Source: Candidatus Marinacidobacterales bacterium
GTDB taxonomy: Bacteria > Acidobacteriota > Vicinamibacteria > Marinacidobacterales > DATDRI01
Assembly: GCA_965219415.1 (NCBI GenBank)
Contig: CBDCNP010000002.1
Span: 4,576,001 to 4,640,000, forward strand
Reading direction: 5' to 3'
DNA: 64,000 nucleotides
Both the position numbers and the translations under genes were made by a program. A model generated the notes under the pieces. The model was given only the letters and a program-made list of their open reading frames with translations, searched no databases and had not been told where the DNA came from. Position 1 is the stretch's first letter. Each line of letters starts with the position of its first letter. Positions 27,322 through 35,605 of this stretch are shown piece by piece.

Positions 27322-27961
27322 TTAAGCTGGCGAAGTCCTCATCCGTCGTTCAAACTCGGCCGGACTGACCTGGCCGAGGGTCGAGTGTCGTCGTCTCTGG
27401 TTGTAGAATACCTCGATGAAGTCGAAGAGGGCCATCTTGGCCTCGCCGCAACTTAGGAAATGCTCCCCAAGCTCGTGCTTGACCGTGGAGAACCAGCTCT
27501 CGATGACGGCGTTGTCATAGCAGTTGCCCCGTCGGCTCATGCTCCCGGTCATGCCATGCGTCTCAAGGAGACGTTGGTAGTCTTTGCTGGCATACGGACT
27601 GCCCTGATCGGAGTGATGCAAGAGCCCCGCGGCCGGTTGGCGACGTTTCAGTGCCATCCCGCAACGCCTTGATAACCAGGTGACGGTCGTTAATAGCACT
27701 TACGGCCCACCCAACGAGGAATCGCGAGTAGAGGTCGAGGAGCGCCGCGAGATAAAGCTTCCCGCCGCTGCCGATCACGAACTCGGTCGTGTCCCCGACC
27801 CACCGTTGGTTCGGCGCATCGGCGACGAAGTCTTGCCCGAGCACATTGGCCGCGACGGGCTGGCCATGACCGCTTACCGTCGCGCGCTTGAAGCGTTTTG
27901 CGTACTCGAGCAATGAGGCCTTCTGCCTGTTTCAACCGAATCACCCGCTTCCGACTCACTC
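27322..27961 (-). pseudogene. IS3-family orfB fragment, frameshifted
   Basis: WVGDTTEF...LDLYSR; HHSDQGS...DNAVIESWF; cut by the IS1-family end at 27962. Confidence 0.85.
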
Positions 27962-27981
27962 GGTGCTTCCGCCATCAAGTG

Positions 27982-29406
27982 ATGGAATGGACTCCTCCAC
28001 TGACATAGACGGCATCGATGTGCCAAAGTCAGTCGAATACGCATCGAAAAGGAGGAGTCCGAATGAAAGATACAACGATCGCTGTGGATCTTGCAAAGAA
28101 CGTCTTCGAGATTGCCATCTCGGGAGAAGCGGGGAAGGTGTCCAAGCGACTCCGTGTGAGTCGACCCAAATTGGTGTCGTTCTTTGCCAAACAGAGCGCT
28201 GCCACCGTGCTTCTCGAAGCCTGCGGCTCGGCTCACTTCTGGGCAAGGACGTTCCGAAGGTTGGGACACGACGTCGTCCTGCTCCCACCTCACCTCGTGA
28301 GGCCGTATCGACGCGGGAGCAAGAACGACCGCGCCGACACGAAGGCGTTGCTCGAGGCCTACAGGAACGAGGAGCTTCTTCCCGTACCCATCAAGTCCGT
28401 GCACCAGCACACCCTCGCCGCGCTCCATCGCCTGCGCTCAGGATGGCTCTCCACACGGACCGCACGCATCAATGCCGTACGCGGGCTCCTGCGCGAACTC
28501 GGATTCATCATCCCAAAGGGCGCTCACTTCGTCGTGCCCGCCCTCTTCGAACTCGTCGAAGACGCTGATTCTGATTTGCCCGACGTGCTCCGTTCGCATC
28601 TCCGTGATGCCTGCTCCGAGATTCGAGAACTCAAGGACAAGTGCGCTAGCATCGAGCACGAGCTCAAGGCGCTCACCAAGCAGCTTCCTGAAGTCCAACG
28701 ACTTCTCGCCATTCCCGGCATCGGACTTCTGACCGCGACCGCCATCGTGGGCTTCGTCGGCGATCTTCGCCGCTTCCCATCGGGGCGCCGCTTCTCGAGC
28801 TACCTCGGCCTAGTTCCCAAGGAAAACTCCAGTGGCGACATTCGCCGCCTCGGACGCATCACCAAGCGTGGCGACTCCTACCTCCGTATGCTCCTCACCC
28901 AGGGCGGGCGCGCCGTGCTCCGCGCGGCGAACGTCAGCAAGAGCCCGCCCGACAAGCTCCGCGCCTGGGCTCGGAAGGTCCACCGCTCGCGGGGACACAA
29001 CAAGGCCGTGATTGCTGTCGCCAACAAACTCGCCCGGATCGTCTGGGCCGTCTCCACCCGCGAGAGTGAATTCCAGTCGCCGGTGGCCGCTTAGACTTAG
29101 AGGCTCCACTTTCGTGTTTTCCTTTTTCCCTTCCAAAAGAGGCTGCGACGATACCCATCCAACTGATGGCGTACCGGTCGGACCGGCGCGGGGTCAAGCC
29201 AATAGCAACACTGGCCCTAAGAGGCCGTTCAAAGTGATTGGCTCCTCGCGCGCGGATTTTCCATCATGGCCCGGAGCACCCAAGACGCTCCTCACTGAGG
29301 CCGAAGATACGTTTGCAGTCTGACCCACCCGTCACGACGCGATGGATGCGCAGCTTCGATGGAAGATTTATTAAGAAAGGGGCTTGACTAGAGGAGTCCA
29401 GATATG
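27982..29406 (+). mobile_element. IS110-family (IS1111-type) element
   Basis: Transposase 28063-29094 (AVDLAK, LEACG, KNDRAD, IPGIG, LGLVPKENSSG); subterminal IRs TGGACTCCTC / GAGGAGTCCA; no TSD; boundaries from comparison with the empty site near 34425. Confidence 0.95.
29160..29325 (+). ncRNA. Predicted bridge/seek RNA of the IS1111-type element
   Basis: Non-coding region downstream of the transposase; stem gccaat/attggc enclosing segments matching the target; second loop matching the element ends. Confidence 0.8.
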
Positions 29407-30586
29407 TTGCTACGCGGCTGCGGGCAGTGGTACAGGTGCGGAAGAGACCGGGTTGCGCGCCCTACTGAGCACGAAAACCTCGATCCGCGACCACAAAGGA
29501 ATCGTCGTCGCCAAGAAGATGTCTCGAAAGGTGAGCCGTCGCGTGGTCAGACCAGCCTGCATAGCCGGAGTTCGGATCTCACGTCCGAACTTCAGAGTTC
29601 CGTGCGGTCGGACGAAGTTGTAATAGCAACGGAGCAACTCCAGGTGCTCATCGAGCCTCTCCGTCGAGCGAGCGTGGGAAAGCGTTCGTCTCGAAAGGTA
29701 TGCCGAGCTTTGCCGGATGGTCAGATTCAACCGCTCGATGAACGACGTGTTCAATGTCGAAGAGTCCTCGGAGTTATTCAGCGCGTCTTCGAATCGCCAC
29801 GCGGCTCCGTGCAGCGCTCTGCGTTCGACCTTGATGATGCGATCGTTCCTGCGCGTTTTTAGGACCTGGCCGTAGAGACACGCTGGACCGAAGAAGCGAC
29901 GGATGACCTTCTGGTAGAATTCGAATCCATCCGTGACGATCAAGGGAAGACGCTCGAAATTCATCCGCTTCGAAAGGTCGCGAAACAGAGCGTGAGTGTT
30001 CCGGTAGCTTCGCCTTCCCGTCACCGTCGATGGCCAGAGCCGAGACCAGACTTCGATTGTAACGAAGACCCAACTCGGTGTCTTCTTGTTGCCCGCGAAC
30101 GTGCGAATCTCGTCGGCTTGAAGCTCTTCGGCAGCGAAGCCAGCGATCCTCCTGTGATTGAATCGACGACACATTTGGGCTGCCTTCTCGAGCCAGCGGG
30201 CGACGGTGTTCCGGGCAATCCCTTTGATCCGGGAAATCGAGGAAATGCTGACACCCTCGACTCTGAGAGCGATGACCCCATCGAAAGTAGCTCTTCGATG
30301 TTGGAGACGGTAGTAGGGCGTGCCTTTCGTCGAGGAGAACGTCTTTCCGCACTCGCCGCACCGGTATCGACGGCGTTTCCCGGACCTGGTTCGGTAGAAT
30401 CCGTGGCGAACGATGTTTCCGGAACTGACTTTGCCCTGCAACGGACATGCGAGATTGAGACATCTGCGATTCTTCACTTTGGCTCGGCCCTGACGATGAG
30501 AGAACTGTGTCTTCGGAATTCTGGTCCAAACTCTAGCACGCAGACCGGTTAGGGGCTGGCCGCCAACACTTAATTGCGGAAGCACC

Positions 30587-32584: not shown

Positions 32585-33000
32585 ACTCCTTACGCGATGT
32601 CGATCACCATCGCGTCCTCCGCTAGAACGACCTGCCCGGAGAAATTCTTTCTTGCGTCCTGAACTATCTTGTCCCAGATCTAGGGCGAGCGACGCTCGCC
32701 CTAGTACATGGAGGCCATGTCGATCGCTGGCTGCGCCGAGGTGAATCATAGGTGGACTTGACCCGCTTTCGTGGACACCTAATCCTTTGGGTGCTTCCGC
32801 CATTAAGTGTTGGTGAGATGACGCTAAGACTTTACGGTGCACTAAATTACAGCCAAAATAGCGCTTACGACCTTCGCTGCACGCTAAATGGAGCGTAAGC
32901 GCCTCTTTTGCAAAGGGATGCGTACACATCACCAACACTTGATAGCGGAAGCACCCTGCACGCTGCCATTCAGCCTCTCTTTAGCCATAGACTTCCTCCT

Positions 33001-33474
33001 CTATTGAAGTGTTCGCCAGTTTTTAAGCTCAACTGTTTCCGACGCGGCTCCCCGATCGCCCGTGTCATCGGTGTATGCCGCTTCGAGTCTCAGGAACCAT
33101 CCTCCGTCGCCGTTGGGAATCGAACTCTCCACTCCGAACGTCACCATCTTATGGAATGCACCATGCCCATCGATACGGTTCGTTCCGTAGTTATCCAAAA
33201 TGCGGCGCTGGCTGATGCCTCTCTTCTCCACGATCTCGCCGTCTCGCCTCGATATATAAAGGCGAATCCGGTTCAGATCGATTCCGGTACCCGCTGTCTC
33301 CATCAATCCAAAATCGAAACGAATCTTGGCTTGGCTAGAATATACCGATGTCACGTAAGTCGCTTTGTAGACCGTGAGATCAACCATTGCTTTCGGGCTC
33401 TGGCTTGGGCTCTTAGAAGAGCTATCGCCACAACCCGCTACAAACAGGGCAGACGTCAAGATATAAACCTTCAT
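33001..33474 (-). CDS. Hypothetical lipoprotein
   Basis: MKVYILTSALFVAGC lipobox. Confidence 0.6.
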   Translation of the reverse strand: MKVYILTSALFVAGCGDSSSKSPSQSPKAMVDLTVYKATYVTSVYSSQAKIRFDFGLMETAGTGIDLNRIRLYISRRDGEIVEKRGISQRRILDNYGTNRIDGHGAFHKMVTFGVESSIPNGDGGWFLRLEAAYTDDTGDRGAASETVELKNWRTLQ

Positions 33475-34405
33475 CCTATCACCTACTCTGGGCCAGGCGG
33501 GTGGAGGAGGAATGAGGTTTCGAGCCCGTGAGGTCAAAATACTCATGCGGATTCCCGATGGTAGAAACGGAGCAACCCGCCAAGCCGTTCACGGGAGCTT
33601 ACTTTACGCTCGGACAGAAGTAATGGGTCGCTGGCTGGGAACAGCAGCAGGATTCTCCTTGCCTTGATGATTCCTCTTGTGATGATGGTAGACGACGTAC
33701 TCCGTCCTGTGCCAAAACTCGGCCCTTTTGAAATAGACCATAAATCAGCAGCTTAGTGTCTGTGTTTGAGGTTCTTGAGTGCGCCGCAGGCGCGTATATC
33801 CCCACGTCGGGTTCGCCTGCGTCACGCGTACAATGAGTTCACGGATGTCCTTCGCCGTCGGGGGTCGGCCTGGGCTCCGGTTCTTGCTGCCATCGTACTT
33901 GGCTGCAATGAGGTAGCGGTACCAACGCAGAATCGTAGCGGATGTGGCAACGGACGCAATCTGGGCCAGCGCCTCGCGGCCCAAAGCCTTGGCCTTGACA
34001 GCGAGCCTGCGCCGATCGTCGTCAGAGAGCCTGAGACGCTTGCCCCGAAGCCCGGCTCGAAGCACGCGGTTCTCCTCTCGCAGGTAGTCAATCACATCCT
34101 GTTGCTGGTGGTTGACCCAGCCAGCGGTGCTTGCGCTGTTTGCTGTTGGTGATGTGTACGTATCCCTTTGCAAAAAAAGCGCTTACGCTCCATTTAGCGT
34201 GCGGCGAAGGTCGCGAGCGCTATTTTGGCTGTAATTTAATGCAGTGTAAAGTCTTAGCGTCATCTCACCAACACTTAATAGCGGAAGCACCGTCCGAGCA
34301 CAAGGTGCGCTCCCGTGAACGGCTTGGCGGATTGCTGCGTTTCTACCATCGGGAAGCGCATAAGTATTTTGACCTCACGGGCAAGTGGAGCTATTCGGCT
34401 CTTGG

Positions 34406-35605
34406 GGTGCTTCCGCCATCAAGTGTTGCTACGCGGCTGCGGGCAGTGGTACAGGTGCGGAAGAGACCGGGTTGCGCGCCCTACTGAGCACGAAAACCTC
34501 GATCCGCGACCACAAAGGAATCGTCGTCGCCAAGAAGATGTCTCGAAAGGTGAGCCGTCGCGTGGTCAGACCAGCCTGCATAGCCGGAGTTCGGATCTCA
34601 CGTCCGAACTTCAGAGCTCCGTGCGGTCGGACGAAGTTGTAATAGCAACGGAGCAACTCCAGGTGCTCATCGAGCCTCTCCGTCGAGCGAGCGTGGGAAA
34701 GCGTTCGTCTCGAAAGGTATGCCGAGCTTTGCCGGATGGTCAGATTTAACCGCTCGATGAACGACGTGTTCAGTGTCGAGGAGTCCTCGGAGTTATTGAG
34801 CGCGTCTTCGAATCGCCACGCGGCTCCGTGCAGCGCTCTGCGTTCGACCTTGATGATACGATCGTTCCTGCGCGTCTTTAGGACCTGGCCGTAGAGACAC
34901 GCTGGCCCGAAGAAGCGACGGATGACCTTCTGGTAGAATTCGAATCCATCCGTGACGATCAAGGGAAGACGCTCGAAATTCATCCGTCTCGAAAGGTCGC
35001 GAAACAGAGCGTGAGTGTTCCGGTAGCTTCGCCTTCCCGTCACCGTCGATGGCCAGAGCCGAGACCAGACTTCGATTGTAACGAAGACCCAACTCGGTGT
35101 CTTCTTGTTGCCCGCGAACGTGCGAATCTCGTCGGCTTGAAGCTCTTCGGCAGCGAAGCCCGCGATCCTTCTGTGATTGAATCGACGACACACTTGGGCT
35201 GCCTTCTCGAGCCAGCGGGCGACGGTGTTCCAGGCAATCCCTTTGATCCGGGAAATCGCGGAAATGCTGACACCCTCGACTCTGAGAGCGATGACCCCAT
35301 CGAAAGTAGCTCTTCGATGTTGGAGACGGTAGTAGGGCGTGCCTTTCGTCGAGGAGAACGTCTTTCCGCACTCGCCGCACCGGTATCGACGGCGTTTCCC
35401 GGACCTCGTTCTGTAGAATCCGTGGCGAACGATGTTTCCGGAACTGACTTTGCCCCGCAACGGACATGCGAGATTGAGACATCTGCGATTCTTCACTTTG
35501 GCTCGGCCCTGACGATGAGAGAACTGTGTCTTCGGAATTCTGGTTCAAACTCTAGCACGCAGACCGGTTAGAGGCTGGCCGCCAACACTTAATTGCGGAA
35601 GCACC
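34406..35605 (-). mobile_element. IS1-family element, intact copy 2 (transposase 34429-35496)
   Basis: 355 aa, near-identical to copy 1; GGTGCTTCCGC IRs; no TSD. Confidence 0.9.

Follow-up and report, generated by a model that had tools for sequence, protein, structure and literature searches.

What brings one mobile element to the same point in the end of another, time after time, is the question raised by a 64,000-bp stretch of DNA from a Candidatus Marinacidobacterales bacterium (assembly GCA_965219415.1, contig CBDCNP010000002.1, positions 4,576,001 to 4,640,000 of the forward strand). This whole stretch is called the window below, with positions counted from its first letter. In it an insertion sequence (IS) of the IS1111 group lies within a terminal repeat of an IS1-like element, and a first reading made from the sequence alone (the sequence-only reading) had proposed that the site is chosen by an RNA encoded in the insert. 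Our analysis leads to much the same answer, with a probability that we put at roughly 0.85: the IS1111 recombinase would be guided by an RNA from the 312-nt region between its stop codon and the right end of the element, one loop of which reads the target and the other the element's own ends, giving insertion at aagTG/ttgcta (here and below a slash in a sequence marks the junction). The element belongs to the known RNA-guided IS110/IS1111 kind, of which it is a clear case from nature with a guide that can be read, and the mechanism is not new.

The element and its insertion site

Comparison with the empty site puts the insert at 27982-29406 on the forward strand, which is 1,425 bp with the right-hand TG (29405-29406) counted. 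At the left junction we have ...ccatcaagTG/ATGGAATGGACTCC, with the IS starting at 27982, and at the right junction ...GGAGTCCAGATATG/ttgctacg, with the IS ending at 29406; in full, 27962-27998 reads ...ggtgcttccgccatcaagTG/ATGGAATGGACTCCTCC... and 29391-29423 reads ...GAGGAGTCCAGATATG/ttgctacgcggctgcgg.... TG is present on both sides of the insert and one of the two belongs to the target. An empty site had been expected near 34425, in the second copy of the flanking element, and that is where it is: ggtgcttccgccatcaagtg/ttgctacgcggctgcgggcag occupies 34406-34446 with the join between 34425 and 34426, and from 34406 on this second copy runs uninterrupted as ggtgcttccgccatcaagtg/ttgctacgcggctgcgg. 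The insertion severs the outer 20 bp of the host repeat from the rest of the host IS. It lies 3 bp from the stop codon of the host transposase (CTA on the forward strand, 29410-29412), also as first described.

The assignment to the IS1111 group, made at the outset without database searches, is borne out by the Pfam and NCBIfam matches, the subterminal repeats and the layout. The transposase matches DEDD_Tnp_IS110 (PF01548, E 6.6e-12) and Transposase_20 (PF02371, E 5.9e-25) in Pfam, and scores 306 bits, against a cutoff of 140, with NCBIfam NF033542, 'IS110 family RNA-guided transposase'. Residues D9, E52, D89 and D92, together with S256, S257 and G258, are invariant in three sequences down to 46% identity, the GL-P----S(t)G motif of the IS1111 group is present as GLVPKENSSG, and the length of 343 aa is within the 330-350 aa of the group. 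The C-terminal part matches the solved structures of ISCro4 (E 5e-9) and IS621 (E 2e-8). The subterminal repeats TGGACTCCTC and GAGGAGTCCA are perfect over 10 bp and match at 11/12 when extended; the published length of such repeats in IS1111 elements is 11-13 bp (PMC11187229) or 7-17 bp (PMC11208160). The non-coding DNA is longer after the gene (312 nt, 29095-29406) than before it (81 nt, 27982-28062).

Among the family features that could be tested, the one that fails is the IS1111 convention of a 7-bp left and a 3-bp right extension. Here the extensions add up to 12 nt and not 10, owing to a core base at the right junction that is T and not C, and they can be divided as 6+6, 7+5 or 8+4 according to the placing of the TG. 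For relatives with CG at the right junction, assigning TG to the IS and CG to the target gives 7/3, and the misfit is one of bookkeeping and of this core base, not of architecture. By its sequence, then, the element is placed in the IS1111 group as a distant relative of ISPa25. Its paralogues in the same genome are two distant fragments only (28-32% identity), which are useless for comparison of guides.

Guide segments in the non-coding region

Four segments of the region downstream of the gene can be read as guides, two for the target and two for the joined ends of the element (Table 1). The sequence-only reading had TAGCAACAC, AAGTG, TTCCATCAT, the stem and TTGACT in their correct places, and AGATACG one base too far to the left, at 29305-29311 where the actual position is 29306-29312.

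In 1000 dinucleotide shuffles of the non-coding region, a 10-nt complement of the target (TAGCAACACT) was reached 3 times and a 9-nt complement of the joined ends 11 times, and in 0/1000 were both reached together. In the case of the same-sense segments, the longest matches were reached in 576/1000 and 164/1000 shuffles, those matches being other strings; what supports AAGTG and AGATACG is where they lie in the fold, together with the relatives.

The non-coding region folds better than its shuffles, with a z of -3.95 over 309 nt and of -3.1 over 181 nt. In the first predicted hairpin the stem AGCCAAU with AUUGGCU (gccaat at 29198-29203 pairing with attggc at 29237-29242) and an apical UGGCC-CUAAGA-GGCC(G) flank an internal loop with 5' strand AGCAACAC and 3' strand (G)UUCAAAGUG. 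In the second, GCGGAU with GUUUGC and an apical GGCC...GGCC flank a loop with 5' strand UUUCCAUCAU and 3' strand GAAGAUAC. RNAalifold on a MAFFT alignment alone kept 11 pairs, and for that reason the fold of the single sequence was laid on the alignment of 43 sequences and tested there, after removal of six pairs drawn inside the guide loops. Of the cells, 77.1% are paired as compared with 67.6% when shuffled and 33-44% when partners are slid, and there are changes on both sides in 32 of the 44 pairs of the fold. The stems of the second hairpin (helices 6-8) are among those that covary.

Site specificity within the genome

The 8.05-Mb assembly has 30 full-length copies of the element at 99-100% identity, plus fragments, and all 30 are in one orientation at one specific target. 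The left flank is the same in every copy, diverging exactly upstream of the 20-mer, and TG is at the left junction in 30/30. The right flank is ttgcta in 28 copies and ttggcg in one, and one copy is followed directly by part of its own non-coding region, repeated in tandem. Insertions at unrelated sites lacking the motif, the pattern that the sequence-only reading had set against itself, were not found among these copies, which have aagTG on the left in 30/30.

The 20-nt tip of the host repeat has 481 matches in the assembly with up to 3 mismatches, and 33 of them are occupied, 30 by full copies and 3 by truncated ones. Tips that continue with TTGGTG are the most numerous (185 empty, 0 occupied), followed by those with TTGGCG (90 empty, 1 occupied), TTGCTA (87 empty, 28 occupied) and TTGGTA (33 empty, 0 occupied). 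Occupancy is 28/115 for TTGCTA tips and 2/363 for all other tips, 361 of which are empty (Fisher 8e-17), and with the left side fixed at exactly CCATCAAGTG there are 27 occupied and 74 empty as against 2 occupied and 45 empty (p 8e-4). Since the types of tip differ at the bases with which the 5' target guide pairs, a bias to TTGCTA is what this guide predicts. The target had been described as the subterminal region of a multicopy IS1-family element. The stop-side end of an IS1-like element is indeed the site, but the target is not confined to a single IS, as the tip is common to about 481 termini of several classes.

These copies amount to a natural experiment on specificity: the 30 insertions can be set against 87 empty sites that match perfectly and against 361 almost identical ones, which are hardly ever used and whose differences are mainly at two or three of the bases paired with a guide.

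Guides and flanks in relatives

Scans of genomes and metagenomes gave 70 and 80 loci. Both ends were found for 54 relatives, of which 51 were aligned (L169, L125 and L146 had wrong end calls and were dropped) and 42-49 were usable per test. The target-guide test is without 9 rows in which the target hairpin was misaligned, L076 being among the misaligned rows and analysed by hand instead; 2 rows were dropped from the donor test.

Near-identical copies are found in metagenome-assembled genomes labelled Candidatus Marinacidobacterales, where 41 of 50 distinct left ends are in the same tip. In other genomes there are also six copies at unrelated sites whose guides are unchanged; all of these sites end in (A/G)AGTG, and two of the six read tttcaagtg/ttgcttg and tatcaagtg/ttgctga.

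Two relatives have guides that changed together with the site. L048, with a protein 94% identical and the same donor loop, sits at ctgctccagTG/attgttatcc and differs in the target loop only, which has AACAAUCG and GCAGCG as against AGCAACAC and AAAGUG in the window element. Its target 5' segment is AACAATCG for a right junction TGATTGTT, and its 3' segment CAGCG for a left flank CAGTG. L076, with only 46% protein identity, has the target 5' segment AAGGATCG for the right junction CGATCCTT, and its 3' target guide GUCUUUG equals the left flank GTCTTTG (7/7). From the 5' guide AAGGAUCG a right flank starting with ATCCTT was predicted, and GGCGTCCATACA-CG/ATCCTTGACC was then found 1.6 kb downstream of the left end. 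In the donor loop of L076, AUACACG corresponds to its own end ATACA-CG and UCUCAU to ATGAGA, and the four guides match 8/8, 7/7, 7/7 and 6/6.

For the relatives as a whole we shuffled which element goes with which flank or end. The 3' target guide matches the left flank at 203/336 (144 +/- 5.7 permuted) and the 5' target guide the right junction at 169/378 (137 +/- 5.3 permuted), while for the donor loop the 3' guide matches the right end at 236/245 (196 +/- 4.2 permuted) and the 5' guide the left end at 232/294 (218.5 +/- 3.6 permuted, the highest permutation also giving 232). More telling than these statistics is that the right ends are of five types, GATA, TATA, TACA, TACC and TGTA, and that there is a matching guide for each. 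The donor 5' strand likewise changes with the left end, TCTCAT being found with ATGAGA and TACCAT with ATGGTA. Complementarity of guides and DNA, with covariation, is thus observed across the relatives, alongside the site specificity and the anatomy described above.

A separate observation concerns L093 and L094, two short contigs labelled Longimicrobium and Gemmatimonadales with a transposase 45% identical over 71 aa. Their 17-nt left end ATGGGATGGACTCCTCC is that of the 92-94% relatives and is one base from that of the window element, and they are inserted after cctgcagtg.

Proposed mechanism and alternatives

We suggest that the RNA (about 29176-29325) would form two hairpins with an internal loop in each. 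The first loop would hold the target, the matches of both of its strands covering the TG at which DNA strands are exchanged, and the second would read the joined ends of the element, the circle junction, in the same way. The element would leave as a circle with its ends abutted, the circle would probably turn on transcription through a junction promoter, the RNA would bind the recombinase, and the circle would be recombined into aagTG/ttgcta, 20 bp inside the terminal repeat of the IS1-like element and of a few others with the same tip. The existence of the RNA, its binding by the recombinase, the circle and the junction promoter we infer from published work on ISEc11, ISPa11, ISKpn4 and IS621.

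With regard to the promoter, joining the ends would give TTGACT, then 18 nt, then TG-n-TGGAAT. TTGAC is found 16-17 nt from the end in 18/51 relatives, and a promoter scan gave 0 sigma-70-like sites inside the linear element. By analogy with the published elements, use of TTGACT as the -35 of a junction promoter, as first suggested, is plausible, with a weak -10.

Several points weigh against the two-loop reading. The same-sense AAGTG and AGATAcG are too short to be significant on their own. The 3' target guide UCAAAGUG has an extra A as compared with tcaagtg, and a bulge is needed for pairing beyond AAGTG, while at one base the donor 3' guide fails to match (C against T). Compared with L048 and L076, the pairing of the 5' target guide is shifted along by one position, and its best register varies from -1 to +1 across relatives. 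The permutation tests ignore shared descent, so that their z-values are inflated, and guide and end are inherited together on one molecule. A scan of 27800-29600 with Rfam 15, with E up to 1, gave no bridge-RNA family and only a chance miRNA match inside the gene. The junction -10 is poor, being TGGAAT after an 18-nt spacer with no A at its second position. Finally, there are 24 sequencing runs, 3 of them recorded as RNA; four (X17-X20) cover parts of the gene and of the non-coding region, and their contigs, uninformative as to expression, show neither the ends nor the circle junction. One contig has the empty-site join (27981 to 29406).

The alternative that survives best is that the first hairpin alone acts, as a short target seekRNA, with the ends recognised by the protein through the subterminal repeats and the matches of the second loop due to shared descent. 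According to Siddiquee et al. (PMC11187229) an 82-nt seekRNA is sufficient for ISEc11, and recognition of the ends may be different in IS1111 elements. Co-inheritance of guide and end makes the donor-guide permutation tests overstate the case, and the left-end signal, at the level of the top permutation, is weak. Against this stand the guides that match each of the five types of right end, the double compensatory change in L076 (TCTCAT with ATGAGA as against TTCCAT with ATGGAA in the window element), the covarying stems of the second hairpin, and the donor-binding nucleotides reported for IS1111 bridge RNAs by Durrant et al. (PMC11208160). We consider this alternative unlikely, and continue with the two-loop reading.

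It could also be held that no targeting is involved, and that the common site of all copies goes back to one old insertion, multiplied as its host transposed with the insert as a passenger. The host is multicopy, and 20 of the about 24 conserved bases of the tip stay outside the insert. But insertions are found in at least three classes of host plus one TTGGCG end, and when hosts are compared over 300 bp the nearest to an occupied host is an empty one in 12/15 cases for the IS1-like class and 7/10 for a second class. This nearness to empty hosts indicates separate repeated insertions and not a host carrying one insert, and the suggestion that the element hitch-hikes, in the sense of movement with its host, is not upheld. 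Another genome also has the same guides at sites that are not in an IS and yet share the 12-nt core, and L048 and L076 were retargeted with matching guides, all of which makes the passenger explanation very improbable. Least of all do we favour recognition of the terminal repeat by protein-DNA contacts alone with complementarities due to chance, for which nothing specific speaks beyond the shortness of some guides, and which has against it the covariation of guides with flanks, the absence of both long matches together from all 1000 shuffles and the reprogramming of relatives in published work (PMC11187229).

Comparison with known systems

ISPa25 family - the closest annotated match, with a transposase 46.5% identical over 99%. 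The layout is the same (left ..gagTG/ATGGAATGGACTCCTCC, right TTGACGGAGGAGTCCATATA-CG/), and the 3' non-coding region has GCCGATAAC...ATAGGC and TTCCATGATGGCC...GAATATACG loops, as in the layout here. The ISPa25-family copy lies between qacEdelta1 and a blaOXA cassette, whereas the window element is in an IS terminal repeat and not in attC, and both target guides of the window element specify a TG core, whereas the 3' target guide of the relatives ends in CG (44/51). ISPa25 targets integron attC sites, according to PMC11187229, and many metagenomic relatives adjoin GTTAGGC-type flanks. From these sequences the window element looks like a member of an attC-targeting clade that was redirected to an IS end. 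If attC-targeting elements can be so redirected, one mobile element can use, and perhaps damage, another.

IS4321 and IS5075 - the direct precedent for a mobile element aimed at the end of another. These IS1111 elements were reportedly found by Partridge and Hall in 2003 to insert at one position and in one orientation in the terminal inverted repeats of the Tn21 family. Their host is a Tn3-family transposon with 38-bp repeats, and here the host is an IS1-like element, together with other elements that share its tip. No IS110/IS1111 element aimed at an IS1-type repeat was found among the literature matches listed, which is no proof that there is none in print.

ISEc11, ISPa11 and ISKpn4 - elements with seekRNAs (Siddiquee et al. 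2024). The likeness is in the RNA lying 3' of the gene, the two matches that overlap in the target and the lack of an internal promoter. For those elements the work was experimental, with purification and sequencing of the RNAs and reprogramming of the system, whereas here everything is read from DNA. In the same paper (PMC11187229) IS1111 seekRNAs have the complement of the top strand first, target matches that overlap at the exchanged dinucleotide, and an RNA 3' of the gene, and PMC11208160 puts IS1111 bridge RNAs in the right end. The guide order here is the IS1111 order in each of these respects: top-strand complement first, overlapping target matches and RNA 3' of the gene.

IS621 - the bridge-RNA element of Durrant et al. 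2024 and Hiraizumi et al. 2024. It is alike in having a target and a donor loop, with each strand pairing with one DNA strand across the core dinucleotide. The C-terminal domain of the recombinase is homologous, and only that part aligns by sequence search. IS621 differs in having its RNA in the left end, the guide order reversed, a core of CT and no long subterminal repeats. Much less work has been done on the pairing rules of IS1111-type bridge RNAs than on those of IS621, and the copies in this genome, with the retargeted L048, provide ready-made pairs of guide and target on which these rules could be tested.

The core dinucleotide

The mismatch of AGATACG with the right end AGATATG had been noticed in the sequence-only reading, and is real, but it is not sloppiness of the guide, as CG is the family-wide state of the 3' donor guide (44/51) and it is the right end of the window lineage that has T. 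Variants at 91-94% identity that likewise have the right end AGATATG have the guide changed to AGAUAUG.

The left junction has TG in 43 of the 51 aligned relatives, and the two bases after the right end are CG in 28, TG in 7, GG in 7, CC in 4 and others in 5. Both same-sense guides end in CG, in 44/51 each, and in 37 elements a left-junction TG is opposite a guide CG; in the window the positions concerned are 29311 and 29405. The donor 5' guide of the window element and of the ISPa25-family copy reads the complement of TG. It is conceivable, though we would hold it only tentatively, that the guides of the ISPa25-like clade are made to suit a donor and a target whose first core bases are not the same, which is the footprint expected if transfer is essentially of the top strand only, or if the circle has a T.G heteroduplex. 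The window element may then be an exception in its clade, having adopted a TG target, and this too is doubtful. A top-strand-insertion model was proposed for one IS110 element (bioRxiv 10.1101/2025.10.25.684509), and the core asymmetry, if true, would be support for it from natural sequences in the IS1111 group.

Host elements and features of the locus

The main host is an element of 1,200 bp with a single transposase of 355 aa. A length of 1200/1201 bp is modal, being found in 18/47 empty copies, and the far terminus of the window copy is in range. The host transposase, taken from the twin copy at 34429-35496, scores 85.3 bits (E 5e-24) with NCBIfam IS1 NF033558, below the cutoff of 100, and 22 bits with Pfam DDE_Tnp_IS1 as against a threshold of 24.1, and on these matches the host is best described as IS1-like. 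Target duplications of 4 bp or more were found in 0/32 intact IS1-like copies.

The two ends of the host share the first 24 bp or so of the tip (22/24 identical) and then differ, the tip continuing as TTGCTACGCGG on the side of the transposase stop and as CAATTAAGTG-TTGGCGGCC on the other end; only the stop side is used. At least two further classes of TTGCTA tips, continuing with CGCCGTGTTTGAATG or CGCCGCTAGAGGC, are occupied as well.

Table 1. Features of the insertion, its predicted RNA and its host, in window coordinates
Feature	Position	Strand	Basis or remark
Host terminal repeat, outer 20 bp (GGTGCTTCCGCCATCAAGTG)	27962..27981	+	identical to empty copy 34406-34425
Left copy of core TG	27980-27981	+	last two bases of host 20-mer
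IS1111-group element	27982..29406	+	30 full-length copies at 99-100% identity; empty-site comparison
Left extension ATGGAA, 6 nt	27982-27987	+	precedes left subterminal repeat
Left subterminal inverted repeat TGGACTCCTC	27988..27997	+	reverse complement of 29391-29400; kept in about 50 relatives
Transposase/recombinase gene, 343 aa	28063..29094	+	Pfam, NCBIfam, GLVPKENSSG motif
Predicted bridge/seek RNA scaffold, closing stem 29176-29183 with 29318-29325 around two hairpins	29176..29325	+	minimum-free-energy fold, covariation
Putative target loop 5' strand TAGCAACAC	29203..29211	+	complementary to top strand G-TG-TTGCTA (right target and core)
Putative target loop 3' strand UCAAAGUG	29229..29236	+	AAGTG 29232-29236 equals left target and core; abuts stem ATTGGC
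Putative donor loop 5' strand TTCCATCAT	29259..29267	+	complementary to A-TG-ATGGAA (last base of right end, core, left end)
Putative donor loop 3' strand AGATACG	29306..29312	+	equals right end AGATA and core; C where the element's DNA has T
TTGACT, candidate -35 of a promoter that would be whole only in a circle with joined ends	29384..29389	+	position; function inferred
Right subterminal repeat GAGGAGTCCA	29391-29400	+	pairs with left repeat
Right extension GATA	29401-29404	+	between right repeat and core
Right copy of core TG	29405-29406	+	all-copy comparison
Rest of host 1.2-kb IS1-like element	29407..30586	-	far end approximate, from modal length 1,200 bp
Unoccupied target copy in the window's second IS1-like element	34406..34446	+	sequence comparison

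With regard to the bodies behind the tip, the approximately 481 termini with the tip GGTGCTTCCGCCAT(C/T)AAGTGTTG run on into several unrelated bodies. An intact 1.2-kb body is found in 3/15 occupied IS1-like hosts and in 29/58 empty ones (Fisher p 0.045), which would reflect either a greater age of the occupied hosts or decay brought on by the insert.

Elsewhere in the window, two overlapping frames on the reverse strand at 27322-27960, with matches to the rve integrase core, directly abut the 20-bp tip, and together are an IS3-type transposase broken by a frameshift. Inverted copies, over 100 bp long, of a TTGGTGAG-type terminus enclose a 1.5-kb stretch at about 32790-34293, which contains a 142-aa N-terminal fragment of a transposase and a 181-aa open reading frame.

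Duplications and partial units

In 27 of the 30 copies there is a tandem duplication of 20 bp, AAGAAAGGGGC(G/T)TGACTAGA, just inside the right repeat, and one copy has three units. The window copy and one other have a single unit (29373-29392 in the window), as do the 98% relatives. The candidate -35 is within the unit, and in the inner copy mutation has made it GTGACT.

Tandem partial units consisting of the non-coding (guide RNA) region only are present at G000:C3:3315128-3316853 and in L031, L032, L040, L041, L045, L046, L047 and L057. In these the right end adjoins internal sequences that resemble the target, one being gtg/attgctgtcgcc inside the transposase gene and another AGATACG/tgttttcc at the start of the non-coding region. 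Runs X17 and X18 have one contig each in which 29404 is joined to 28872 inside the transposase gene, going back 533, which is another partial tandem form and not the circle junction. The partial guide-region units are reminiscent of the solo ssr9 copies of ISPpu9 (PMC12288879).

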